From NCBI RefSeq assembly GCF_024124665.1, contig NZ_JAMXSB010000005.1:293672-357671 (forward strand): a stretch of 64,000 bases of DNA. Reading direction: 5' to 3'. The notes under the pieces are model-generated. The model was not told the DNA's origin. It made no database searches and saw nothing but the letters and a program-made list of their open reading frames with translations. This stretch comes from Pleionea sp. CnH1-48. GTDB lineage: Bacteria > Pseudomonadota > Gammaproteobacteria > Enterobacterales > Kangiellaceae. Of the stretch, positions 45,215 through 64,000 are shown one piece after another. The position numbers were made by a program, and so were the translations under genes. The number at the start of each line of letters is the position of its first letter. The first letter of the stretch is position 1.

Positions 45215-47890
45215 ATGCTTCTTATGATATGGCTTTTGACTGCCACAGGATTTTTACTGGGTTTACTCACTGGAGAAGGGAGTGTTGTTGCTCTTTATAC
45301 TGCCGTTGGCTACCTTCTGGGCAAAGTCAGTGAACAATCCAAAGTCATCAAAACACTTCAAAGCAAACTTGCGACACTGATTGAGCCTACTCATAAACGG
45401 CATTCAAACGTCCCTTCAGAATCACCACTCAGACAAGAAGAGCCACGACCTCAAACTGATGTCGATGAGGAAGAAACACTATCCATTGACGATGATATAT
45501 TGATGCCAGAGCCTCAGGAGCAAAAACAACGCCCTCCAACTCCCACGACAGCCCCCCCTACTCCATCGCCCAAAAGAGAACCGGGGCTACTCAGCAAAAT
45601 AGGTCAATCTATTTTCAATTACTTTACCACTGGCAATCTTATTGTTCGCGTGGGCATTATTTTGTTGTTCATTGGCGCGTCGTTTATTATCCGCTATGCC
45701 GCACAACACGATTTACTGCCTATCGAACTGCGCTTATCAGCTTTAGCACTAGGAGCTATCGTCTTATTTGCTTTCGGCTGGCGCCTACGCCACTCTCGTC
45801 GAGACTATGCCTTATTGCTGCAAGGTGGCGGGGTTGGCATTATCTATTTAACCGTGTTCTCTGCCTTTAAGTTTTATCAACTGTTGCCATCAAGTCTGGC
45901 ATTTCCTTTTCTATTGATATTCAGCTTTGTCAGCATAGGACTCGCAGTCAAACAAAATGCTCGCTCTATGGCGATCATGGGTATGCTAGGGGGATACGCT
46001 GCTCCTCTTATTACTTCTACGGGAGAAGGCAGTCATGTGGCTCTGTTCAGTTACTACTTGATACTGAACTTGACGGTTTTTGCAGCCGCACTGTTTCGAG
46101 CGTGGCGAAGCTTAAACCTTCTGGCTTTTATTTTTACTTTTGTTATTGGTTCAGCCTGGGGGTTATTCCGATACGAAGCCTCACTACTACTATCAACAGA
46201 ACTCTTTTTAATTACCTTTTTTGTACTCTTCAATCTCATTGCCATTTTTTATCACCGGGTCCAACAACCAACCAAAGGCAATCTGGTGGATGGCACTCTC
46301 ACCTTCGGTAATGCCATTATTAGTCTATCGATTCAGGCAGTGCTTGTTGATAGCTACGAATACGCTCTCAGCTTAAGCTTCTTCATTGCCGGAGTGTTTT
46401 ACTTTGTACTCAATAAAATAACCGCTAAACTCGACTCTCAAAAACCTTTGTTGTCACAAACTTTTAGCGCACTGGGTTTAATCTGTCTGACATTGGCTAT
46501 TCCTTTTGCGTTCGACAGTCAAATCACATCAGCCATGTGGACAATCGAAGGGGCAGGATTAATTTGGTTATCACTACGCCAGAAAATCCAATGGCAATGC
46601 GCTCTTGGGATTCTGGTTCAGCTAGGTGGGGTTTTATTTTTATTGCCCGAGTTTGAGCACGTACAACAATGGCAAATTTATCTTTCTATTTTAATCGTTA
46701 GCTTATCACTGATAACAACAGCAAGAATTTTTGAACGACACGATTGCGAATCTTGGCAAAAGCAACTGATATCGCCATATTTCATAGGCGCTTATGTTTG
46801 GTGGTTAATCACCGCACTCATTGCAGCAGGACAATTGCTCGAAACGCCGGAGCTGTATCATTTCAGCCTGGTGATTATTGGATTGCCCGCGGCCCTCTAC
46901 TATTATCTCGCACAATTCAGGCAATGGTCAGAACTGTCATTCAATTTATTAACGACACCTGCCTTAATCATGTTAGCAAATTTGATTTTTTTACTCGATT
47001 ACGAGCACCTGTTATTCGGCTGGGGGCTACTATTGATTCCTCTAAGCTGGGCAGGCAGTTATTGGTTGATGCTCAAAAACCGCCATCACTCAGCGACGCC
47101 TTACTATCACTTTTCGTTGTACTTGCTTATCACGCTGATTTTAAGCAGTGAAGCCTATTGGCTGGGTGAGCATACTCTAAAGGTAGCATCACCTTGGACA
47201 GGAGCCATGATAGGGTTAGTCATTGCGACCTCCCTATTCATTGCCATTGAGAAAGCAACGATATTTTTTGAAGAAGCAAAAGAAGTTTATCGCTACACAA
47301 TACCTCTTGTTGTTGCCATTGGATCGATCAGCTGGTTTTTAGTATACAACTTGCTATCGGCGAGCCAACCTCTGCCACTGCCTTACATTCCCCTATTCAA
47401 CCCAATCGATTTAACCACAGGGCTTATCGTTTATATGCTTTATCGTTGGTATAAAAAATCGTCGCTTGAGTATTTTAAGCTACCTGCACAAAGCCATTAC
47501 TGGATTGCCGGAGTCTTCAGCTTTATCTGGCTTAATAGCTTACTGTTACATAGCCTGCATTTTTACGCAGATATCAGCTATTCACTCTACGCCTTTAATC
47601 GATCGGCCCTCGTTCAAACCAGCCTCTCGATAGTCTGGACACTGCTCGCACTGGTTATCATGCTATTATCAAAACGTTGGCAACAGCGTCAGGTTTGGTT
47701 AGTGGGATCAAGTCTGCTAGGGATTGTGGTGCTGAAACTGCTACTCAAAGATCTATCAGGACAGCAAAGCATAGAGCGAATTATTTCGTTTATGGGTGTA
47801 GGATTTTTGTTACTGGTTATAGGTTATCTGGTTCCCATTCCGCCACAGCAACCCAATGGAGAGGTTAACGAAGACAAGCCCTCTCAGTAG
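45215..47890 (+). CDS. DUF2339-family polytopic membrane protein
   Basis: 891 aa. N-terminal TM, a Pro-rich linker, then more than 20 TM helices. Confidence 0.6.
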   Translation: MLLMIWLLTATGFLLGLLTGEGSVVALYTAVGYLLGKVSEQSKVIKTLQSKLATLIEPTHKRHSNVPSESPLRQEEPRPQTDVDEEETLSIDDDILMPEPQEQKQRPPTPTTAPPTPSPKREPGLLSKIGQSIFNYFTTGNLIVRVGIILLFIGASFIIRYAAQHDLLPIELRLSALALGAIVLFAFGWRLRHSRRDYALLLQGGGVGIIYLTVFSAFKFYQLLPSSLAFPFLLIFSFVSIGLAVKQNARSMAIMGMLGGYAAPLITSTGEGSHVALFSYYLILNLTVFAAALFRAWRSLNLLAFIFTFVIGSAWGLFRYEASLLLSTELFLITFFVLFNLIAIFYHRVQQPTKGNLVDGTLTFGNAIISLSIQAVLVDSYEYALSLSFFIAGVFYFVLNKITAKLDSQKPLLSQTFSALGLICLTLAIPFAFDSQITSAMWTIEGAGLIWLSLRQKIQWQCALGILVQLGGVLFLLPEFEHVQQWQIYLSILIVSLSLITTARIFERHDCESWQKQLISPYFIGAYVWWLITALIAAGQLLETPELYHFSLVIIGLPAALYYYLAQFRQWSELSFNLLTTPALIMLANLIFLLDYEHLLFGWGLLLIPLSWAGSYWLMLKNRHHSATPYYHFSLYLLITLILSSEAYWLGEHTLKVASPWTGAMIGLVIATSLFIAIEKATIFFEEAKEVYRYTIPLVVAIGSISWFLVYNLLSASQPLPLPYIPLFNPIDLTTGLIVYMLYRWYKKSSLEYFKLPAQSHYWIAGVFSFIWLNSLLLHSLHFYADISYSLYAFNRSALVQTSLSIVWTLLALVIMLLSKRWQQRQVWLVGSSLLGIVVLKLLLKDLSGQQSIERIISFMGVGFLLLVIGYLVPIPPQQPNGEVNEDKPSQ

Positions 47891-48091: not shown

Positions 48092-49621
48092 GTGCGCGTT
48101 CGACTCTCGGATCTGGAAGTTGATTACGAACAATTTTCAGTTATCAAGAATGGTGAAATAACCATCTTACCTAAGCTGTCCTTTGAGCTACTGGATTGTT
48201 TTATTAAACACCCAGGCAAAGTCTTAACCATTGAAGAGTTAATCGATCACGTCTGGACGAATTCACAGGTCAGTGACGAAACTGTAATACAAAGAATCAC
48301 TTTGCTACGAAAAGCTATTGGTGATAATGCAAAGTCCCCCCAATATATTGAGTCATTGCGTGGCAGAGGATATCGTCTGATCGCAACGCCTTCTCCCATT
48401 ACCGAAGAGAAAGCGCCTCTTAAGATTAAAAGCTCAGTCAGACGTTTTCTAGTTATTACTCTCGTCATACTATCTGTAGTTGCCAGTTACTATATCTTCA
48501 AGCCTTCACCATCAAACAAACAAGCATCACTCACTCAACGAGCTTACTATTATTTATCCATCGGCCAGCTACCTAATGTAACCAGAGCCATCGATTTGTT
48601 TTCTAAACAACTTGCCAACTCACCTAATGATGAAAAAGCCATCATCGGATTAAGTCGAGCGTTAAGTACATCCGTTTGTCGTTACAATCAACCCTACGCA
48701 AAAGCAGAACAAGCCCTCAAGTTAATTGATAACTACCTGGAGCAGCACCCCAATAATCCTGATATTTTAAATTCTTTAGCGTTTGCCTGGGACTGCCTCG
48801 GAAATCTGGAAAAAGCCTTCTCACACTACCAAGAGTCATTGCGGCTGGAACCGAATAACCTAGAGACACAGACTGAATTAGCCCACTTATTAGGAGTAAA
48901 AGGCTATTTGGGAGAAAGCCTGAACTTAACGAATAAAGTCTTACAAAAGAAACCTGACAATGCCATGCTTTTACTACAAAAAGCACAGATGTTAGAACTG
49001 CTGCAATATACCAGTGAAGCCGAAGCGATTTATAGAGACGTGTTCGAGCGCTTCCCCGACAATGTTTTTGTCAACGAGGCATTACCACGTTTTCTTTATA
49101 CTCATCAGCGCTTAAATGAAGCCCAGAAACATCTGGATATTGCTTTAACCAGAGGAATAAAAAGGAATGCTCTTTACCTCTACTATTCAGAGATAGTGTG
49201 GCTTACTAAAGGACAAAACGACGCTGAAGAATGGTTAAAGAAAGCAGCAGATATCAACCCAAACCAAAGCTATCCTCGCACACTTTATCAACTTCACTCT
49301 CAATCACTTTCCAGAGCAGCAGCTCAGGCAAAACTGGATGACTTGAAGCAGGCAGAACAATGGGGTGATACCTGGCCGATAAATTACATCGAAGCAGCCA
49401 TTATCAGTGTTCATATTCTAAAGGCGCCTGACAAAGCACTTAAATACTTACAACAAGCCGTTGCCTCTGGATATCGTTCTAACGAATATCTGTTAATGTC
49501 ACCTTTTCTCCAGCCTTTGAAACAACACCCTGAATTTTATCAACTGATAAAACACATTGGACAGTTGCGTTCAACAGCCAGAGAAAAGTTTGAATTATCA
49601 CAAAGTCATACTAACGTTTGA
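48092..49621 (+). CDS. ToxR/CadC-like membrane-anchored winged-helix regulator with periplasmic TPR domain
   Basis: GTG start. OmpR/PhoB-type trans_reg_C N-terminus ('ELLDCFIKHPGKVLTIEELIDHVW...LRKAIGDN...GRGYRL'). One TM. TPR repeats. Confidence 0.7.
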   Translation: MRVRLSDLEVDYEQFSVIKNGEITILPKLSFELLDCFIKHPGKVLTIEELIDHVWTNSQVSDETVIQRITLLRKAIGDNAKSPQYIESLRGRGYRLIATPSPITEEKAPLKIKSSVRRFLVITLVILSVVASYYIFKPSPSNKQASLTQRAYYYLSIGQLPNVTRAIDLFSKQLANSPNDEKAIIGLSRALSTSVCRYNQPYAKAEQALKLIDNYLEQHPNNPDILNSLAFAWDCLGNLEKAFSHYQESLRLEPNNLETQTELAHLLGVKGYLGESLNLTNKVLQKKPDNAMLLLQKAQMLELLQYTSEAEAIYRDVFERFPDNVFVNEALPRFLYTHQRLNEAQKHLDIALTRGIKRNALYLYYSEIVWLTKGQNDAEEWLKKAADINPNQSYPRTLYQLHSQSLSRAAAQAKLDDLKQAEQWGDTWPINYIEAAIISVHILKAPDKALKYLQQAVASGYRSNEYLLMSPFLQPLKQHPEFYQLIKHIGQLRSTAREKFELSQSHTNV

Positions 49622-51373: not shown

Positions 51374-51826
51374 ATGATGACAAAATTAGATGCATTCAAA
51401 GCCTTAGCTCATGAGTTCACTCAACTCATGGAGCTGCCGAGTATTGATTTTGGCCCCGATGCAGGCTTTGGATTAGAGATGGGTGATATGGAGTTGAATG
51501 TTGGTTATCGAGAGGATTCCGACGAAGTTGTCGTTATTTCTTATCTTAACGAATATTCAGAGCAAGAATCACCAAGCTTGTACAGAAAGCTGCTGGATGC
51601 GAACTTTGCGTTTACAGAAAGCGGGCATGGTGCCTTTGGACTAACGCCTGATGAAAACCAGGTAACCTTTAGTACCAAGATGCCATTGCAAGGTATGACG
51701 GTTAAAGAGTTCTATGAACTCATTTCTCATGCTAGAAGGATCAGTAAACGATGGTTGGAGCAAATCGAAAAAGATTGCGAAGAACCCATCGATTTGGCTG
51801 AGCCAACTTTTGGCATTCGGATCTAG
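51374..51826 (+). CDS. CesT/SycE-like class-I secretion-chaperone-fold protein (YbjN/TY-Chap-like)
   Basis: 150 aa, acidic. Alpha/beta pattern matching T3SS class I chaperones ('ALAHEFTQLMELPSIDFGPDAGFGLEMGDMELNVGY..DEVVVISYL'). Confidence 0.55.
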   Translation: MMTKLDAFKALAHEFTQLMELPSIDFGPDAGFGLEMGDMELNVGYREDSDEVVVISYLNEYSEQESPSLYRKLLDANFAFTESGHGAFGLTPDENQVTFSTKMPLQGMTVKEFYELISHARRISKRWLEQIEKDCEEPIDLAEPTFGIRI

Positions 51827-51852: not shown

Positions 51853-52122
51853 ATGCCAATCGACATCAGCAAAGTGAACACACCTTCGACGTTACCAACG
51901 TCAGACCCCAACTCGGTCGAAAAAAACCAAGAGAGCGAATGGCAACCTGATCGTAATAAAGATTTTGATTCACCAATGACTATTAAAAGCCCCAAGCAGA
52001 GTTTTATTCAAATATTAAACTCCACCACTGACTTACCTATTGTTGACGATATGAAACAATTGAAAAGTATTGTTATTACTGAACTTAAAAAGTCTTCTAA
52101 AAGCTCTTTAGGCAATGATTAA
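51853..52122 (+). CDS. small S/P/T/K-rich predicted disordered protein (possible chaperone client)
   Basis: 89 aa. Good SD (aaggag, 9 nt upstream). Starts 26 nt after the chaperone stop. Confidence 0.45.
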   Translation: MPIDISKVNTPSTLPTSDPNSVEKNQESEWQPDRNKDFDSPMTIKSPKQSFIQILNSTTDLPIVDDMKQLKSIVITELKKSSKSSLGND

Positions 52123-52189
52123 AACTCGCCAGTGGATTTCGAAGTAAAAAAAAGAACGAAACGTAACGTTTCGTTCTTTTACTATGTTA

Positions 52190-53773
52190 CTACTTTGATG
52201 CTCCCGGCAGCGTCACCATTTCTCGCATTACGCCATCGAGGCCACCGTAAACCGTAAGCGTATCGATGCGATCAGAGACTCGCTCTAACACCTCTAGCTC
52301 TTTTAACCGCAATAATGTGGCATTGCCTTCCATCACTTTTGCAGTGTTATGCAACGAACGAGTTGCAGCGGTTTCTTCTCGTCGCTTAATGATGTTAGCT
52401 TCAGCCGTTTTTTGAGCTTCAACTACCTGGTTCAGAATATTTTTCATTTCGCCAGGCAAGATGATGTCTCTCACTCCAACCTGCTGTAACTCAATACCAC
52501 AAACCGCCACAGCCTCTTGAGCAGACTGAAACACCAGGTTATTTAACGCATCTTTATCGGCCAGCAACTCATCAAGTGTTTTCATTCCAACCGCTTCTCG
52601 CAACATAAGTTGCAAAGTTCGGTAAATGAAATCCTGATAATCAGCATGCTGTGTTACTGCTTTGACCGCATCAATAACCGAGTACTGTGCACTTAGATTC
52701 AAACGCAGACTTACTCGGTCTTTTGTTAGAATCTCCTGACCGCTCACATCCAGATTTTGTTGACGCTTATCGACCAGTTTAACCGACAGTTTTTTATTGA
52801 GCTTCCAGAACCCGAAGTGCCCAGACTCTAGAACCCCCTTAAGCTCACCACCATCAAATAACAAGGCATTCGCGTTAGTATTAACTTCAACATGCAAAAT
52901 CAGCTGGCGCGCTTTATCGCGAACCCGAGCGTTTTCACTTAGGCAAAGTTCTTGAACAAGATCCACTGGAACCGCTAGCCCTTCTTCAAAAGACAATGTT
53001 TTGAATTGCCACTGACCGCGTTGTTTCCAGAAACAAGCTTGTGATTCTGGAGCAACCAGATCAACCAAGCACCCATCCAGATAAGCTAATACGACTTCTT
53101 GTTTCGCGGTTTTAGTAACAATAAGGTGTTGCGATAACAGAGCTTCATATTCATTTAGCCACAATGGAAGCAATGCGCACTCTAGCTCACCATCACTGAA
53201 TGCAGCCTGCATAACATTGATGTTCTGTTTGCTATTCCATAGATAGTGCATTCCTTTGCTCAAAACGCTTTGCAAATTCTGCTCGTTGAGCAAAAACAAT
53301 CTTTCGACCTCGCTTACATTGACTTGCAGGATTAAACTTTTTAATTTTTCTCTAACGCGTACACTGTCCGTTGAAACTAAGACCGACTTTAATCGCTCGT
53401 CGATCGCTTGTCCCTCTACAATATCGTAGCTCAGAAACTCCCACTCACCTCGATCTTTCCATAAGGCTCGATACTCGTTAGGTTTAACAATATCAAATGC
53501 TCGACCATCCAATAGCACTAAAATAACTTGCTCTTCGCCTGCACGAACATACTCTAGATGTTCGGCAAAAACGTCATGCCGCTGCTTCCATAGAATTTCA
53601 AAATCAGGAAGCTCAAACATTCCGTTGCTGATAGAAAAGTTCTTAAACGATAGCTTTCCTCGAAAATCATAAAATCGATGTTCTCCCGTCGATAAAAGTT
53701 TTACCGGCAGGTTATTTTCCATAACTAACATCCGTTGTGTATCGGATACATTAAAAGTTTTAATTCCAAACAT
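52190..53773 (-). CDS. soluble SPFH/band-7 domain protein with tandemly duplicated N-terminal domain
   Basis: 527 aa. C-terminal stomatin/HflC-like SPFH region plus coiled coil. Two N-terminal repeats of about 110 aa ('QVILVLLDGRAFDIVKP..WKDRGEWEF' and 'EVVLAYLDGCLVDLVAP..WKQRGQWQF'). No TM. Confidence 0.7.
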   Translation of the reverse strand: MFGIKTFNVSDTQRMLVMENNLPVKLLSTGEHRFYDFRGKLSFKNFSISNGMFELPDFEILWKQRHDVFAEHLEYVRAGEEQVILVLLDGRAFDIVKPNEYRALWKDRGEWEFLSYDIVEGQAIDERLKSVLVSTDSVRVREKLKSLILQVNVSEVERLFLLNEQNLQSVLSKGMHYLWNSKQNINVMQAAFSDGELECALLPLWLNEYEALLSQHLIVTKTAKQEVVLAYLDGCLVDLVAPESQACFWKQRGQWQFKTLSFEEGLAVPVDLVQELCLSENARVRDKARQLILHVEVNTNANALLFDGGELKGVLESGHFGFWKLNKKLSVKLVDKRQQNLDVSGQEILTKDRVSLRLNLSAQYSVIDAVKAVTQHADYQDFIYRTLQLMLREAVGMKTLDELLADKDALNNLVFQSAQEAVAVCGIELQQVGVRDIILPGEMKNILNQVVEAQKTAEANIIKRREETAATRSLHNTAKVMEGNATLLRLKELEVLERVSDRIDTLTVYGGLDGVMREMVTLPGASK

Positions 53774-54030: not shown

Positions 54031-54106
54031 TGGCGTTTTAGGTCGGATTCGAACCGACTACCAATTGATTAAAAGTCAATTGCTCTACCCTATGAGCTAC
54101 AAAAAC
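54031..54106 (-). tRNA. tRNA-Lys (anticodon UUU) with atypical A/U-rich acceptor stem
   Basis: Hand-folded. Acceptor GUUUUUG/CUAAAAC (one U-U mismatch), D-arm GCUC-AUAGGGUA-GAGC, anticodon arm AUUGA-CUUUUAA-UCAAU, T-arm GUCGG-UUCGAAU-CCGAC, encoded CCA. Confidence 0.8.
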
Positions 54107-54497
54107 AATAATCAGATCCCTAGTCTGAGGACATTGTTGAAGGCTGGTACACAATAAAGTTAATAACCCTTGTGCCAGGTGGATGACGACTCCACTCCGC
54201 TAGCGCATCAATAAATGTCACCTCTGTTATAGCGAAGAGCGTGCCAACTTTTGACAAAAGCCTTAAAGCATTGATTTTATTATATATTTAATTTCTTAGA
54301 TGGAATTCCCAACAAATAAAACCTATCATTTTAGATAGATTGCAATCCAAAATAATAGCCACTCGACTTTTAACTTTGATAAGGCTACTTTCATACCAAC
54401 GCAGAATAGACTCAACGCAGCGGATAAATTGCCAATAGTGCTTTCAAAAGCAGTAAATTAGGCTTTTCTAGTAGTAGGCGCTAATAACGATTAACAC

Positions 54498-55271
54498 ATG
54501 CCGAGAAGATTACTCATTGCTTTTATATCCACTTTTATCCTCAGCGGTTGTTTGTCTTCCGTTGATACCAAAGGCACCTTTGCACCAAAGCCAGAGATTT
54601 ATTCAGACAGCGTTATTCAAGTGTATGCAGCGCGAACCAAAGGCAAGAAAAAGGCTTTAGCGGTCCACACCTGGATCAGCGTTAAACCTCGTGGTGCCCT
54701 TCATTACACCAGTTATGAAATTATTGGATGGCGATTAAGACGCTACGAAAGCGCCTTAGTCACACGCACCAACATGCCAGATAGAGACTGGTGGGGTCAT
54801 CAGCCTCAATTGCTACTTGATGTGCGTGGCATTAAAGCCGAGCAACTCATTCCCAAAATAGAACAGGCAGTTGCCAGCTATCCTTATGCTTCCACCTATA
54901 CCGCCTGGCCAGGGCCAAATAGCAATACCTTTACTGCTTACGTCGGCAAGCAAGTGCCTGAGCTGGGACTCGATTTACCCTCAACCGCAATCGGTAAAGA
55001 TTATCGCCCAATCAATCAGGTTGCTGGCCTGTCGCCAAGTGGAAGCGGTGTACAATTTTCGTTATGGGGTTTGCTAGGACTTACTTTTGGATATGAAGAA
55101 GGGGTAGAGTTGAACTTACTCGGGTTAAATCTGGAACTCGATCTCTTTGATTTAGCGCTAGAACTTCCAGGAATCGGTCGTATCGGATTGCCAGAAACCT
55201 CAGCGGATAACAAATCGCAAGCCGTTCAAGACACCGCTCAATCCCCACGCCCCACGGTTTTGGAGCAATAA
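54498..55271 (+). CDS. hypothetical lipoprotein (possibly DUF3750-like)
   Basis: 257 aa. Lipobox 'ILSGC'. Confidence 0.45.
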   Translation: MPRRLLIAFISTFILSGCLSSVDTKGTFAPKPEIYSDSVIQVYAARTKGKKKALAVHTWISVKPRGALHYTSYEIIGWRLRRYESALVTRTNMPDRDWWGHQPQLLLDVRGIKAEQLIPKIEQAVASYPYASTYTAWPGPNSNTFTAYVGKQVPELGLDLPSTAIGKDYRPINQVAGLSPSGSGVQFSLWGLLGLTFGYEEGVELNLLGLNLELDLFDLALELPGIGRIGLPETSADNKSQAVQDTAQSPRPTVLEQ

Positions 55272-59018: not shown

Positions 59019-60377
59019 ATGCAAGATAGAAGATATCTAAAACAGAAAAAAGAAGGCGGCGTGTATTTGGTTCAAATCGCTGTACCGACAGCATTACGTC
59101 ATCTAACAAATAACAAAGCCGTTTTAACACGTTCAACAGGAACAAATAATCTTAGAGAAGCCAGAGCGCATAGAGATGTCTTTTTGCGTGAATGGGAAAG
59201 TCTAAAACTACAAGCTGGAATAAACCCCAAAGGCCACCGTTTACGTTCTCTCGTAGCAGACCTTAAGCAATCTTATAAAGAATCGTTAGGAGATCATGAC
59301 ACGGCTCAAACTTGGCTTGATGGGCACGACCCTGAATATTATTACAACCAAGGCGATTTGATTATGGCAGACGCTATTAGAATTGCTAAGGGCGGCGAGG
59401 CTAAGTTTTCAGGTGTTCAAGAAGGTTACACACTTCCAGAAGTCGCTAAGGAGTATAGAAATACAATTCTAGGCAAGAAGTCCAATGACTACTTAATGAG
59501 AATATTTAAATCTGCGTCAAGGTGGGAAGAGTTTGATAAAGAATCTACACCTTTAAAAAATATTGGCAGAGCAAAAGTGGTTGATTTTATTGAGTACCTT
59601 TCAAAAGTTGAGGGGTTGAAACATAAAACCATTCGTGACATTTTATCAATCTTCAATAAAACATGGATTTATGCAACCAATAAAGAATATGTTATTGATA
59701 AAGCATCGCCGTTTACTGCTCACTCTTTAGATACTTTGAAAATCAACTCTTACGAAACGTTAACGCTGACTGAGTGGGAGGGAGTACTAAAACACTACAT
59801 TCCCAGATGTAAAACTATAGGAGCTAAGCTCTTTATGTTTCTGGGAATTAGCTCTGGTATGCGTATAGAAGAAATATCAGGACTTAGAAAAGGCGATGTA
59901 AAATATGTTGATGATGTATTATGCTTTCACGTTAATGATAAATATCGCTCTGTAAAAACCAAGAATGCAATTAGATATATTCCTGTTATGAATAGATACA
60001 TTGATGTAGTTAAAAAACTTGCAGAAGGAAATCCCGAAGACTTTTTATTTAATGAAGCAAGAAGAACTTCTAACAGGTTTGCGGGCTGGTTCAGTTATAA
60101 CATCAAAGAAGCTAAGCGAGCATTTGGAATAACATCACGTCAGAAATCATTCCACAGTTTAAGATGCAATATTGCAACAGCTTGTGAGAATGCCAAGATT
60201 GAAGAGCGAACCGCCGCGTGGCTTTGTGGACACTCTCACAATCAAACGTTAACTTACGGCTTATATTCAGACGGTGCAAATATTAAAGAAATCTTAAAAC
60301 CAGCCATAGATAAGGTTGAAAAGAAACTAGAACCTTTTTTACAGTTTGATAGCTTGGTGTTTAATACGGAGAAGTAA
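59019..60377 (+). CDS. tyrosine-type site-specific integrase
   Basis: 452 aa. Box I 'MRIEEISGL', box II 'FHSLRCNIAT', 'AAWLCGHS', catalytic Tyr region 'LTYGLY'. Confidence 0.8.
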   Translation: MQDRRYLKQKKEGGVYLVQIAVPTALRHLTNNKAVLTRSTGTNNLREARAHRDVFLREWESLKLQAGINPKGHRLRSLVADLKQSYKESLGDHDTAQTWLDGHDPEYYYNQGDLIMADAIRIAKGGEAKFSGVQEGYTLPEVAKEYRNTILGKKSNDYLMRIFKSASRWEEFDKESTPLKNIGRAKVVDFIEYLSKVEGLKHKTIRDILSIFNKTWIYATNKEYVIDKASPFTAHSLDTLKINSYETLTLTEWEGVLKHYIPRCKTIGAKLFMFLGISSGMRIEEISGLRKGDVKYVDDVLCFHVNDKYRSVKTKNAIRYIPVMNRYIDVVKKLAEGNPEDFLFNEARRTSNRFAGWFSYNIKEAKRAFGITSRQKSFHSLRCNIATACENAKIEERTAAWLCGHSHNQTLTYGLYSDGANIKEILKPAIDKVEKKLEPFLQFDSLVFNTEK

Positions 60378-60884
60378 AGAGGTGAGCTTAACGGCTCTCT
60401 TCTAACCCTTCATTTATGTCAACCTCTTTTCGAAGCCTTGAATCAGAGCATTTAGTATAGATACTTTTAAAACACTCCGATTCAAGCTTGCTAGCTCGCT
60501 ACTTCCAAAAGTAACAAAACGTGACTTTTAGGTTTTGGGAACCCCAATTCTTAAAAGCGATGAAACGTCGACTTTGAAAATCTAAAAAGAACAAGTTGTG
60601 CTTTTTGAACCGCCATAAAAAACACGCCACAACATAAAACAGGATTTCTTGTTACTCTTTCCCCTAAAACTACACTCAGCGGTTAGTCGCAATTTTTTGT
60701 CTCTGCCGTATCTTGATCAATGTGCATATTGCTCAGAAAACAACCGCACCCGAAATTTGTGGTGCGCCTAAAGCTTGGTTTTTATATATATTTACAAAAA
60801 GCGGTAAATTTAAACTCCGCGCTCATATTTATGTTATAAAAATAGAGGCCTATAGCAATTAACGGTAATAAGCATTTCTCTTAC

Positions 60885-61310
60885 TTAGCGTCTTCGTTTG
60901 ACTTCTTTTTCTAAAGCGTATACTTCACGGCATTTATGACAGAACTTTATTTTTGTCTTTTTTTTGTCTTCTTCCCAACACGGGCCATAGGCTACTAAAT
61001 TCACATGAGGGTATAGCATTTCAATTTTTTCTTGCTCACTTTTCGACGGAGGTATAACCGTACCATAAACCATCTCTACAGTGTCTTCTTGTAAATCTAC
61101 ATTATGAACATGGCAATACTCAAAAATTGACAGTAAGTGTTCATAATCACTAAAAGGATAATCAAACTTCTTTTGAAACCTTTCCCAAGCTTTCTCTTGC
61201 CAATAAAGCAACCGCTTTCCTTTTCCATCTATAAGCAAAGAGAGAAACTTTATATATTTCTCTTCTCCTAGCATTTCTCTAAACTGAAGTCTCACTGTTA
61301 GTTTATTCAT
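60885..61310 (-). CDS. hypothetical protein in integrative element
   Basis: 141 aa. Possible C-terminal Cys/His cluster (C..FCHKC). AT-rich codon usage. Confidence 0.35.
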   Translation of the reverse strand: MNKLTVRLQFREMLGEEKYIKFLSLLIDGKGKRLLYWQEKAWERFQKKFDYPFSDYEHLLSIFEYCHVHNVDLQEDTVEMVYGTVIPPSKSEQEKIEMLYPHVNLVAYGPCWEEDKKKTKIKFCHKCREVYALEKEVKRRR

Positions 61311-62071
61311 AACTTAAAAACACTGCTAATTGACTATTATTCACTCAGCAAGATGCCTAGTGAAGAAGGATATTTATAGCATAAATTTAAATACCTAAGA
61401 GAAACAATAGCTCATATCAACCCTGGTATTAGGCTATAAATATCGAATTACCTTTAAAAAACGTTTAGCTAACCTGCGGCCATGTAAATAACACTAGGCG
61501 GCGGTCTGAGAGGCTTTTATCTGTAGATATTTCTACCCCCTCCCCCTTAGAGATAAGATCTCAGAGAGGCTTATAAACAGCTTACAGATCACTTAAATCA
61601 GTACATGTGGCAGTCGTTAGTATTAGTGTTAAACCACCAGAGAAACTGTGCAAATCTGCATAATTCTTTTTTTAAGCGAATCTGAAATTTCCGGTTTGGT
61701 TATACAGCAGAATTTCTAAATACCCTGAAACGGGGCATTGAATAGAATACCCCAACATTCGAAATGGTAGTGTTCAAATGTCGGATATTCCTACTTTTAG
61801 GTGACATCAATGAGTTACAACAATACTTCACCTGATAGGGGTCGATGTTTCGTCGCCCCTCAACTCTGCATCAATAACACATCGCACTCAGGGCAACCTT
61901 TAAGCCAGACTTGAGAGTTCCTAACTGTCCTGAAACGAGACGGTCAGCAAATCCAAATACGGCGTTTCACCGTGTTTCAATATTATCAATAACTTACAAC
62001 GCACTCAGAGCTGACTTGTAAGCCGCTTGATGAAGCATTCAAAACTACCGAATAGGTACTTTTAAGTAAAA

Positions 62072-62785
62072 TCAATAACTTATAACTCCTTCTGACATTT
62101 CTAGCTTATCCGTAATCAAACGATTGTAGTTATAGCTCCTTACATCATCATTAGCAGGCTTTCTAAATGACACCTTGTTGCTCATAAATTCACAGTGCAA
62201 CGGTTCCTCTAGCTTCTTCTTTTCATGCTTATAACGCTGCTCCTTGCAGTATTCGGATAAGATAATTTGTTTCACTTCATCCTCGCTAACTTTAAGTATT
62301 GGAAACACATAAGCCACCTCGCCAGTGTCTTCATAAAAGGCTATATTCCCCTCTAATCGTATAACACTCTTTAGGTCTTCTGGTATCGGATAGTCCTGAA
62401 TACACAGCTCGTAGCTCTCTTCGGGCTCCTCAGAGCCAATACCTTCACCATCAGGCAATGTCCCTAACTCAAACACCTCTTGCCAATAGTCTCTTTCCTC
62501 GATATCCCATGCCCATCTTAAAGCAGGGTTAAGCATCAGATAGGACTTATCATAGATAGTTAACACCCTAGCCACTAAGCACCGTTCAAGCTCCTTAATC
62601 AGCCTGTAGTAAGCCGAATGGGAGAGCTTAAAGGTTTGATAGGGTTTCTTCGATAACACCAGTAAATTACATTTATCAGCTCTTGCAGCCACCTCCAGAA
62701 ATAGATTTAAAGCATTCTTGCTCATATTTAACTTAGCCACTCTTAGTAGCTCTGTGCTATCCATGCACGCGTATTTTCGTTTCAT
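62072..62785 (-). CDS. putative replication initiator of the integrative element
   Basis: 237 aa, basic N-terminus. The 5' end directly abuts the iteron field. Assignment is by context only. Confidence 0.4.
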   Translation of the reverse strand: MKRKYACMDSTELLRVAKLNMSKNALNLFLEVAARADKCNLLVLSKKPYQTFKLSHSAYYRLIKELERCLVARVLTIYDKSYLMLNPALRWAWDIEERDYWQEVFELGTLPDGEGIGSEEPEESYELCIQDYPIPEDLKSVIRLEGNIAFYEDTGEVAYVFPILKVSEDEVKQIILSEYCKEQRYKHEKKKLEEPLHCEFMSNKVSFRKPANDDVRSYNYNRLITDKLEMSEGVISY

Positions 62786-62885
62786 AAACCTCCTTATGAA
62801 TGAGTTTCAAAAAATGGGACAGCGTAAAACCTCTGCACACCTTACAGCACAAGGGCTATAGCCTAAAACACCGCCTTAACTTCCT

Positions 62886-63570
62886 ATTATTAAGAGAGAT
62901 TACCTTTAAGATTCTTAAGAACCTATAGCTTTATCTTTAAGACACCTATAGCAATAACAACAATGGTAAATTCTATTACACCTAATCTGAAATAAATCTT
63001 TAAGACATCTTTAAGATGGTCTAAGCGATGACTTAAGTTGTATCCATAGCTTAAAAAGTTTAAGAAATTTAATCAGCTATAACACCTATGACTTTGTAAC
63101 TATTGCTCATCCATTGAACATGTAATTAGTATATCGGCTATAGCTCCCTCTTAGGAGGCTTAAAGTTATCTTAAAGATAGCTCCTAGGTCAACTGCTTTA
63201 GATGGTGCTTATAACTACTGTTCTAATTTAACTCTTTCATACAAAATTCAATAGCCAATGACCAAAGAGCACTTTTAACAACACTCATAACCAAAACTGT
63301 TACATTAGTTTCTAAAGCTATAGAAGGTAGTGTCACACTTTTAAGTTCTCATCGCTTAGACTTTAATCAGCATCTTCTTTTTCAGTCCTTGAAAGGTGAA
63401 GTCCTAAGCCGTCTCATAGATGTGCAATAAACTTATCTTCATTGTTAAACGCTTATGATTAAATATTTAATTGTTCATCCTTTGAACATTGTAATTGGTG
63501 TATTACCTATAACTCCCTCATAGCCAAGCTAGAGATTATCTTAAAGATAGAGTTTAAGGTCAACTATGGT
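62886..63570. repeat. AT-rich iteron field / putative origin of replication
   Basis: At least 8 copies of TCTTTAAGA/TCTTAAAGA in both orientations, including tandem atctttaagac-atctttaagat at 62996-63019. Recurrent (g)ctatagc motifs. Two ~95-bp, roughly 75%-identical direct repeats at 63104-63195 and 63471-63568. Confidence 0.6.
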
Positions 63571-63605
63571 GTGGATATTTAGGCTAGGTCCATTAGCCAC
63601 TGTCA

Positions 63606-63896
63606 TCAATCCTCAAATACAGCCTCTTTGGGTAACTCCCAACCGTGCATATCTTCTGTTAGTAGAAAGTGTAATTCATCCATAGAAAGACTTTTTACTT
63701 GAGATGGTAACCAATTGTGCTTCTGAACCAGATAGTAATGTATAGCATCCATACCATTTAGACCTTGATATTTCTCTCGCCTTGCTAGTTCATCACCAAA
63801 GACAATGAGTGTATAATTTCGTTCTACACTGGTCTCAAATACTTTATGCACACTTCTATAAAATTCTCTTCTACTCATAATGCCTCCAACTAACAC
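63606..63896 (-). CDS. hypothetical small protein
   Basis: 96-aa ORF immediately beyond the iteron field. Confidence 0.3.
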   Translation of the reverse strand: MLVGGIMSRREFYRSVHKVFETSVERNYTLIVFGDELARREKYQGLNGMDAIHYYLVQKHNWLPSQVKSLSMDELHFLLTEDMHGWELPKEAVFED

Positions 63897-64000
63897 CGAT
63901 TAAACTATCAAGTAAACATTTCGAGATTTACAATTCACATAACAGCTTTATAAGATAATGTTTCTCTATCATATAAATATGCAGATAGAAAGTAGTCTTG

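Follow-up and report, generated by a model that had tools for sequence, protein, structure and literature searches.

A transmembrane-free SPFH protein with tandem beta modules and an upstream tRNA-like gene, with no rtc RNA-repair genes found in the surrounding 64 kb of Pleionea sp. CnH1-48

The DNA considered here, hereafter the window, is a stretch of 64,000 nucleotides from the gammaproteobacterium Pleionea sp. CnH1-48 (contig NZ_JAMXSB010000005.1, positions 293,672 to 357,671). It carries a gene for an SPFH (Band-7) protein of 527 amino acids without a transmembrane (TM) helix, preceded on the same strand by a tRNA-like gene. By its sequence, the protein is a member of the RtcB-associated family in which a Band-7 protein is paired with a so-called b7a-tRNA, and it has a stomatin-like core. 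We propose that the locus is a Band-7 and b7a-tRNA cassette detached from the rtc genes, whose product would form a membrane-free SPFH ring or cage acting together with the tRNA-like RNA in RNA repair, a reading to which we assign a probability of about 0.6. The anatomy of the protein, its family, the gene neighbourhood, the tRNA-like partner and the conservation of a promoter element with the closest relative are reported below as they were observed. An earlier sequence-only reading of the window had singled out the protein. The tRNA-like gene upstream of it, from which most can be learned about the locus, was overlooked in that reading.

The open reading frame (ORF) lies on the minus strand and ends with a stop codon at 52190-52192; its product is 100% identical to the NCBI entry 'slipin family protein [Pleionea sp. 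CnH1-48]'. Pfam recognizes Band_7 (PF01145) at amino acids 296-467 (E 9.5e-29; 101.1 bits against a gathering cut-off of 23.6), and at E<=1 it reports Band_7 and Band_7_1 only. Among PDB sequences, the SPFH core and the C-terminal helix are closest to stomatins, with PH stomatin (E 1.7e-21) ahead of human stomatin (E 1.4e-16); matches of the stomatin type span E 1.7e-21 to 1e-12 and the alignment reaches residue 284 of human stomatin. These matches bear out the earlier identification of an SPFH protein and specify the stomatin type. Identity as HflK or HflC was rejected, the scores being far under the NCBIfam equivalog cut-offs (34.4 against 159.4 bits for hflK, 11.1 against 134.4 bits for hflC), and so was membership of a defence system, for which PADLOC returned no match. 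The best-conserved region of the family is the C-terminal helix and tail, in which V508, G511, L512 and G514 are nearly invariant among 75 homologues. The tail (amino acids 503-527) has a low predicted local distance difference test score (pLDDT) in the AlphaFold2 monomer model, as would be expected if it folded only within an oligomer. The highest Kyte-Doolittle mean over 19 residues is 1.3 for a usual threshold of 1.6, so neither a TM helix nor a signal peptide is predicted; moreover, the modelled beta modules begin at residue 4, leaving the claim that the protein lacks a membrane anchor intact.

Amino acids 1-295 match no Pfam family, and NCBIfam and PADLOC likewise leave the N-terminal region unrecognized, in keeping with the sequence-only reading. 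That reading had also placed a tandem duplication N-terminal to the SPFH and coiled-coil region, and all eight motif strings that it quoted were found, at amino acids 83/227, 105/249, 139/283 and 147/291. The duplication is highly significant: a Smith-Waterman comparison of amino acids 1-146 with 147-292 scores 181, for 28.1 +/- 4.9 (maximum 50) over 1000 shuffles (z = 31), and BLASTP aligns amino acids 61-186 with 203-329 at 30% identity over 127 positions (E 8e-23 in pairwise search space). The unit, however, is not a paralogous domain of about 110 amino acids as had been stated. The aligned spans (amino acids 7-145 with 151-289) define a duplicated block of about 144 amino acids, itself composed of two smaller homologous modules. 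A profile hidden Markov model (HMM) of the underlying hairpin motif, approximately V.V.d.e.GLL...G.L...L.PG.y..W......V...D, finds this segment of about 48 amino acids five times in the protein, with a period of about 72 amino acids. The modules follow one another in the order A-B-A-B-C, and the fifth copy forms the beginning of the Band_7 domain.

The repeat is no novel domain: its module is a homologue of the beta segment with which the SPFH domain begins. All module types align nearly without gaps. As a control, a non-iterated HMM was built solely from the SPFH-start segment (hairpin) of the homologues; at E<1e-3 it detects 250 upstream modules in the real sequences and none in 600 shuffled ones, although it is weaker for the window protein alone (E 1e-3 to 1). 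The full-length AlphaFold2 model, computed from a 75-sequence alignment, has a mean pLDDT of 88.3 and predicts five five-stranded beta modules linked by short helices, followed by the SPFH alpha/beta core and a helix of about 60 residues. Amino acids 1-292 modelled alone, with an alignment (A3) of homologues trimmed with the columns of alignment A1, reach a pLDDT of 92 and a predicted template modelling score of 0.78. We conclude that these modules are additional copies of the beta subdomain found at the N-terminus of the SPFH domain itself.

TM-less N-terminal modules do not set this protein apart; they are the norm of its family, of which the commonest form has three. When 1.84 billion representative proteins were searched with a profile of the repeats, 1,529 clusters (50% identity) were retrieved at E<=1e-3 and 826 at E<=1e-10. 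Protein length follows module number among the 120 closest homologues, from which the counts were taken: about 383 amino acids correspond to three modules (104 proteins), about 455 to four, 525-554 to five and 683-744 to seven. The longest members, of 787-924 amino acids, have at least nine modules, with a C-terminal Band_7 domain in all of those examined, and relatives of 586-924 amino acids match no Pfam family other than Band_7 and Band_7_1 at E<=1. One cluster from the profile search (P0138, 416 amino acids) has a strong N-terminal TM helix, LIIFLLILILLYVLLKLIF, ahead of its beta modules. A membrane-anchored version of this architecture therefore exists and is rare.

Typing of the modules against the three positions of the three-module form revealed several registers. 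A-B-A-B-C is found in the window protein and in a Thiothrix-like group, A-B-C-B-C in the Pseudoalteromonas luteoviolacea group, A-B-C-B-C-B-C in seven-module proteins and A-B-B-C in four-module proteins, which indicates that the expansions arose independently and by different routes. The closest relative of the window protein, a three-module protein (P0002), is 58% identical to it overall and 73% identical in the C-terminal part, a region in which identity to the other A-B-A-B-C proteins is 55-61%. Both AB pairs of the window protein likewise score best against the single AB pair of P0002 (79 and 95 bits), versus at most 58 bits against any other A-B-A-B-C protein. Since both AB pairs and the C-terminal part are nearest to a three-module protein, the duplication that gave the window protein its five modules is probably specific to its own lineage. 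The N-terminal modules evolve fast throughout the family, at a much higher rate than the SPFH core; in the window protein, identity to P0002 drops to about 32% in this region. An origin from a mobile element was considered and rejected, the repeat region having no match in phages and a single one in the plasmid collection, on a 1.69-Mb Photobacterium replicon.

A Band-7 protein linked to RtcB RNA-repair operons and accompanied by a b7a-tRNA was reportedly described by Burroughs and Aravind in Nucleic Acids Research in 2016. To our knowledge, the family has been known since then from comparative genomics and has never been characterised experimentally. The Pleionea locus resembles this module in its TM-less Band-7 protein, in the tRNA-like gene immediately upstream on the same strand, and in its orthologues, which adjoin rtcB, rtcA, rtcR and RlaP, the gene for P0002 directly following rtcB-rtcA. 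It differs in having five beta modules versus the usual three and in lying outside any rtc operon over 64 kb. In a preprint that cites the 2016 work, the Band-7 protein and b7a-tRNA encoded beside RtcB are proposed to be a cofactor pair analogous to Rsr and YrlA (bioRxiv 10.1101/312249). The claim that the architecture lies outside the commonly described SPFH subfamilies must be qualified accordingly: the family is not a textbook one, yet it is that of the RtcB-associated Band-7 protein and as such had been described before (bioRxiv 10.1101/312249). The SPFH gene PaFlo8 (PA14_60630) of P. aeruginosa is embedded in an rtc locus as well (PMC13086221), a genomic setting that most relatives of the window protein share.

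The association with rtc genes is readily apparent in 80 related loci from species-representative genomes. The scan of these genomes matched at least 600 stretches, and 576 of the 600 listed were confirmed as relatives, mostly from Gammaproteobacteria. Beside the SPFH gene, RtcB is encoded in 55 of these loci, the regulator RtcR in 47, RtcA in 37 and the nucleotidyltransferase RlaP in 22; HNH, CCA-adding-like and RNase-Z-like genes also occur among the neighbours. The five-module genes of P. luteoviolacea are found in the order RtcR / SPFH-RtcB-RtcA-RlaP, and the locus of the closest relative (L081) has the order RtcB-RtcA, promoter and tRNA-like gene, SPFH. By contrast, tblastn with RtcB, RtcA, RtcR, RlaP and HNH queries returned no match in the 64-kb window, the RtcR query finding no sigma-54 activator gene there. 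The Pleionea cassette is detached from the rtc genes, at least within 64 kb. In some loci, among them those of Kangiellaceae/Aliikangiella, arrays of 7-17 tRNA genes bearing a wide variety of anticodons flank the rtc-SPFH cluster (L003, 7597-11408; L005, 7995-11706; upstream of the SPFH gene in L036 and L038). These arrays adjoin RNase-Z-like, CCA-adding-like and RlaP genes and could form a tRNA supply-and-repair island.

The tRNA-like gene is the sole tRNA that ARAGORN finds in the window; it ends 257 nt upstream of the ATG of the SPFH gene, and Rfam finds no other noncoding RNA near that gene. Of the 74 related loci whose upstream sequence is long enough, ARAGORN gives 62 a tRNA-like gene on the strand of the SPFH gene, mostly 170-450 nt upstream of it, and Rfam adds one in four of five ARAGORN-negative loci tested. 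Taken together, 82 upstream tRNA-likes include 13 with an A34 anticodon other than ACG, 10 with a malformed anticodon loop and one with a stop anticodon, features seen in none of the 32 other tRNAs of these loci. Their acceptor stems have a G+C fraction of 0.40 versus 0.68 in the other tRNAs. As a family, the upstream tRNA-likes clearly do not look like ordinary translational tRNAs. Several loci carry 2-5 tandem tRNA-like genes, the call in L004 is odd, with two T-arm-like segments, and an extra T-arm-like fragment, GGGGTTCGAATCCCC, missing from the window, stands right after the tRNA-like gene of L081 (about 2895-2945). It seems that the RNA partner is often duplicated and often decays. Its commonest anticodons are CAU, UUU and GUU, which belong to tRNAs targeted by well-known anticodon nucleases (VapC, PrrC and colicin E5), and a role as bait or sensor is for this reason conceivable, if speculative. 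The rapid change of anticodons would also suggest involvement in conflicts with such nucleases.

Beyond these observations, we infer oligomerisation, a cage shape, RNA binding and a physiological role, in a scheme that may be outlined as follows. First, tandem copies of the SPFH N-terminal beta subdomain would have replaced the usual membrane anchor, the five modules of the window protein resulting from duplication of the A-B pair. Second, copies of the protein would assemble by way of the conserved C-terminal helix and tail, giving a homo-oligomeric ring or cage. This proposal is based on the fact that every solved SPFH protein forms a ring or cage via C-terminal helices (PMC12624060), and on the helix and tail being the most conserved part of the family and aligning with human stomatin up to its end. 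The beta modules, stacked on one another, would make the wall longer, as repeats do in the major vault protein (MVP), so that module number, from three to at least nine, may set the size of the particle. Finally, particle and tRNA-like RNA together would provide a scaffold or compartment for RtcB/RtcA-dependent repair of tRNA and other RNA after anticodon-loop damage. RtcR is activated by 5' tRNA halves that end in a cyclic phosphate (PMC7790460), which fits such a role. The role would parallel that of Ro60 and Y RNA, which are thought to assist RtcB. In the rsr-yrlBA-rtcBA operons, too, a non-enzymatic protein (Rsr) and a tRNA-mimicking noncoding RNA (YrlA) are encoded with RtcB and RtcA under RtcR and sigma-54, although Ro60 has a TROVE/vWA ring fold rather than an SPFH one, and the RNA here is a near-complete tRNA versus a Y RNA with a tRNA-like domain.

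Several points call for caution over this scheme. Locally, the window has no rtc genes. The protein is acidic and contains neither a basic segment nor an obvious RNA-binding patch, so a simple charge argument gives no support to RNA binding. The AlphaFold2 models cover the monomer only. In addition, deletion of PaFlo8 in P. aeruginosa caused no phenotype in standard assays of growth, virulence, motility, biofilm, tobramycin and oxidative stress (PMC13086221). A bolder form of the proposal, which we advance tentatively and consider doubtful, is that the family as a whole forms a bacterial membrane-free SPFH cage, of an origin independent of the eukaryotic vault, with a wall of stacked SPFH N-terminal subdomains whose length is tuned by module number, and enclosing or holding a dedicated tRNA mimic. 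The mimic, with its rapidly evolving anticodon loop, could then serve to bait or to sense anticodon nucleases, or it could guide the RtcB-dependent repair of tRNA.

The protein may alternatively be a peripheral-membrane scaffold. Given that the SPFH1-like subdomain contacts lipids in erlin, prohibitin and HflK/C, the SPFH1-like modules might, with no TM helix, fix a ring to the cytoplasmic membrane at its inner face. Instead of being a free particle, the complex would then bring RNA-repair factors, or something unrelated, into order on the membrane or tether them there. We regard this as unlikely. Only one of 69 apparently complete representatives of the family has a clear TM helix, and the window protein contains no amphipathic or hydrophobic segment. 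Arrays of five, seven or nine modules are hard to explain as membrane contacts and easy to explain as a wall, and the partners, namely RtcB, RtcA, RlaP and the tRNA-like RNA, are cytosolic. Comparison with stomatins and slipins (human stomatin, Pyrococcus PH1511, E. coli QmcA) is informative in the same respect: these give the best sequence and Foldseek matches to the core and C-terminal helix, but the window protein lacks their N-terminal membrane hairpin or TM helix and has four additional N-terminal beta modules. It also lacks an NfeD partner, as no such gene adjoins it and no NfeD-like cluster appears among the conserved neighbours in the 80 loci.

Expression signals around the two genes bear on whether the cassette is still functional. 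A sigma-54-type -24/-12 element, for which we infer promoter function, lies about 125 nt upstream of the tRNA-like gene, where shuffled sequence would yield about 0.009 such elements per 900 nt. At the same aligned position, upstream of both the tRNA-like and SPFH genes, the closest relative has a perfect TGGCAC-ggcgc-TTGCA. A sigma-54 promoter as a family-wide feature was rejected, a strict or near-strict element being found within 900 nt upstream in five of 74 loci; the element is thus specific to some lineages, including those of the window and its closest relative. The leader of about 125 nt (window 54107-54230, minus strand) shares blocks with that of L081, for example CCACCTGGCACAAGGGTTATTAAC corresponding to CAACCTGGCGCAGCGGTGATTCAC and TGTGTACCAGCC to TGCGTACCGGTT. 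With two sequences compared, the blocks could stem from a structured 5' leader or from a regulatory site. The window carries the full cassette, with promoter, tRNA-like gene, SPFH gene and terminator, and this cassette appears to have been separated from rtcBA in this Pleionea genome.

The detachment from rtcBA and rtcR could also mean that the cassette is an evolutionary remnant, functionless and decaying since the rtc genes were lost or separated. The low identity of its modules to P0002 compared with the C-terminal part and the mismatch in the -12 box relative to the orthologue would agree with decay, which we nevertheless find improbable. The ORF of 527 codons is intact and all five modules are confidently folded in the model. 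The tRNA-like gene scores 68.5 bits in Rfam, above many relatives at 40-47 bits, and the promoter-like element is kept, as is a strong terminator. Fast evolution of the modules is, moreover, a property of the whole family.

The same score raises the question of whether the upstream gene might be an ordinary tRNA-Lys(UUU) gene lying by coincidence next to an unrelated, stand-alone SPFH scaffold. Its positions 8-62 are 89% identical to E. coli tRNA-Lys and its CCA end is encoded. We give this explanation very little credence. The acceptor stem, GUUUUUG/CUAAAAC, is A/U-rich with a U.U mismatch and G73, and fails to align with that of E. coli tRNA-Lys. It recurs with other anticodons in L080, L028, L047 and L014; in other genera, genes that share the acceptor stem, D arm and T arm of the window copy have CAU, UAU or malformed anticodons instead. 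With its atypical acceptor stem, common to non-Lys relatives, the window copy may be something other than a standard translational tRNA. Coincidence is further opposed by the persistence of the upstream, same-strand arrangement in most of the 74 loci and in many genera while anticodons change, often to non-physiological ones. Likewise, the closest relative has kept, inside an rtc operon, both the promoter and a clearly orthologous tRNA-like gene, which also has a UUU anticodon.

Structural comparison introduces the vault. Against the PDB, Foldseek aligns the C-terminal half of the full-length model over about 250 columns with stomatin (top), HflK/C, prohibitin, erlin, QmcA and flotillin, and it aligns MVP chains over 590-655 columns, spanning the entire window protein (E 1e-12 to 1e-9). 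The repeats alone retrieve MVP without significance; they appear to resemble the SPFH N-terminal subdomain rather than vault repeats. As modelled, the likeness to MVP is one of overall architecture: in both, tandem small beta-sheet repeats lead into an SPFH-like domain followed by a long helix, and a membrane anchor is absent. A small structured RNA is associated with both, here by gene linkage, and the longest family members approach MVP in size. The vault is also the only SPFH assembly described as membrane-free and fully enclosed, the others sitting on membranes (PMC12624060). On the other side, no similarity in sequence between these repeats and vault repeats could be detected, nor any in structure that was significant; the repeats derive from the protein's own SPFH N-terminal segment, and no analogues of TEP1 or PARP4 were seen. 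That the family is a true bacterial MVP homologue, a vault by descent, would account for the full-length alignments, the shared order of parts and the RNA, yet it is highly improbable given that neither the window protein nor its longest relatives match Pfam Vault or MVP_shoulder, that the SPFH core is nearest to stomatin by sequence, that the repeats retrieve MVP without significance, and that the known bacterial MVP homologues are a different set, from Myxococcales, Cytophagales and Oscillatoriales (bioRxiv 872010). These searches gave no sign that the family descends from MVP, and the recent, independent duplication of the protein's own SPFH N-terminal segment points to convergence.

The features of the locus and of its surroundings are collected in Table 1. 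The SPFH gene is monocistronic, with both neighbouring genes, for the CesT-like chaperone and the DUF3750 protein, on the opposite strand. None of the nearby DUF2339, Trans_reg_C/TPR and DUF3750 genes recurs beside the SPFH gene in the 80 related loci. The CesT-like gene and the following ORF of 89 amino acids could be a chaperone-effector pair unrelated to the SPFH locus. The last part of the window (60001-64000) may be a segment of distinct composition, its G+C fraction dropping to about 0.37 after values of about 0.42-0.46.

Table 1. Features of the SPFH locus and its neighbourhood, in window coordinates (aa, amino acids of the SPFH protein unless given as a length)
Feature	Position	Strand	Basis or remark
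Sigma-54-type -24/-12 promoter-like element, TGGCAC-gctct-TCGCT	54231..54246	-	10/11 match to TGGCAC-N5-TTGCW
b7a-tRNA-type tRNA-like gene, anticodon UUU, encoded CCA	54031..54106	-	ARAGORN tRNA-Lys(ttt); Rfam tRNA, 68.5 bits
Coding sequence of TM-less SPFH (slipin-type) protein, 527 aa	52190..53773	-	ORF, Pfam, hydropathy, NCBI identity
Beta module 1, type A, aa 3-46	53636..53767	-	Hairpin-motif HMM, module typing, AlphaFold2 (five strands, E4-47)
Beta module 2, type B, aa 67-117	53423..53575	-	Hairpin-motif HMM, module typing, AlphaFold2
Beta module 3, type A duplicate, aa 142-189	53207..53350	-	Hairpin-motif HMM, module typing, AlphaFold2; SPFH-start HMM E 9.6e-4
Beta module 4, type B duplicate, aa 213-260	52994..53137	-	Hairpin-motif HMM, module typing, AlphaFold2
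Beta module 5, type C, aa 286-335, canonical Band_7 N-terminal beta segment	52769..52918	-	Pfam start at aa 296, hairpin-motif HMM, module typing, AlphaFold2
SPFH alpha/beta core, aa 339-438	52460..52759	-	Pfam Band_7, PDB stomatin sequence matches, AlphaFold2 model
Long C-terminal helix, aa 441-502, equivalent of the stomatin coiled-coil/wall helix	52268..52453	-	AlphaFold2 helices H441-483 and H485-502
C-terminal tail with conserved TVYGGL.G motif, aa 503-527	52193..52267	-	Conservation in 75 homologues
Intrinsic terminator, 14-bp stem and T-run	52150..52180	-	Starts 10 nt past the stop codon
Large DUF2339 membrane protein	45215-47890	+	Nearby gene
Winged-helix (Trans_reg_C) and TPR regulator	48092-49621	+	Nearby gene
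CesT/Tir-type chaperone homologue	51374-51826	+	Pfam CesT, E 7.9e-14; convergent with the SPFH gene
ORF of 89 aa without family match	51853-52122	+	Directly after the CesT-like gene, convergent with the SPFH gene
DUF3750 protein	54498-55271	+	Neighbour gene

Three aspects of these results are new as far as we checked, the 2016 description being known to us through the paper that cites it: the N-terminus of the protein as a tandem array of modules resembling the SPFH N-terminus, the range of copy number from three to at least nine through independent expansions in different registers, and the existence of the cassette detached from rtc genes. Interest attaches mostly to the family rather than to the window gene, whose significance is more modest, as evidence that promoter, tRNA-like gene and SPFH gene form a unit able to persist alone. 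With about 1,500 clusters, the family seems to represent a bacterial route to an SPFH particle free of membranes, the second besides that of the vault. The variation in module number is a built-in natural experiment, and it comes with a genetically linked RNA partner and with defined enzymatic neighbours, RtcB, RtcA and RlaP. The purpose of membrane-free SPFH cages and the role of the non-enzymatic cofactors of Rtc RNA repair are, with this family, directly testable in bacteria. If the reading as a cage holding a tRNA mimic is true, the particle would be a bacterial counterpart of the vault or of the Ro ribonucleoprotein.

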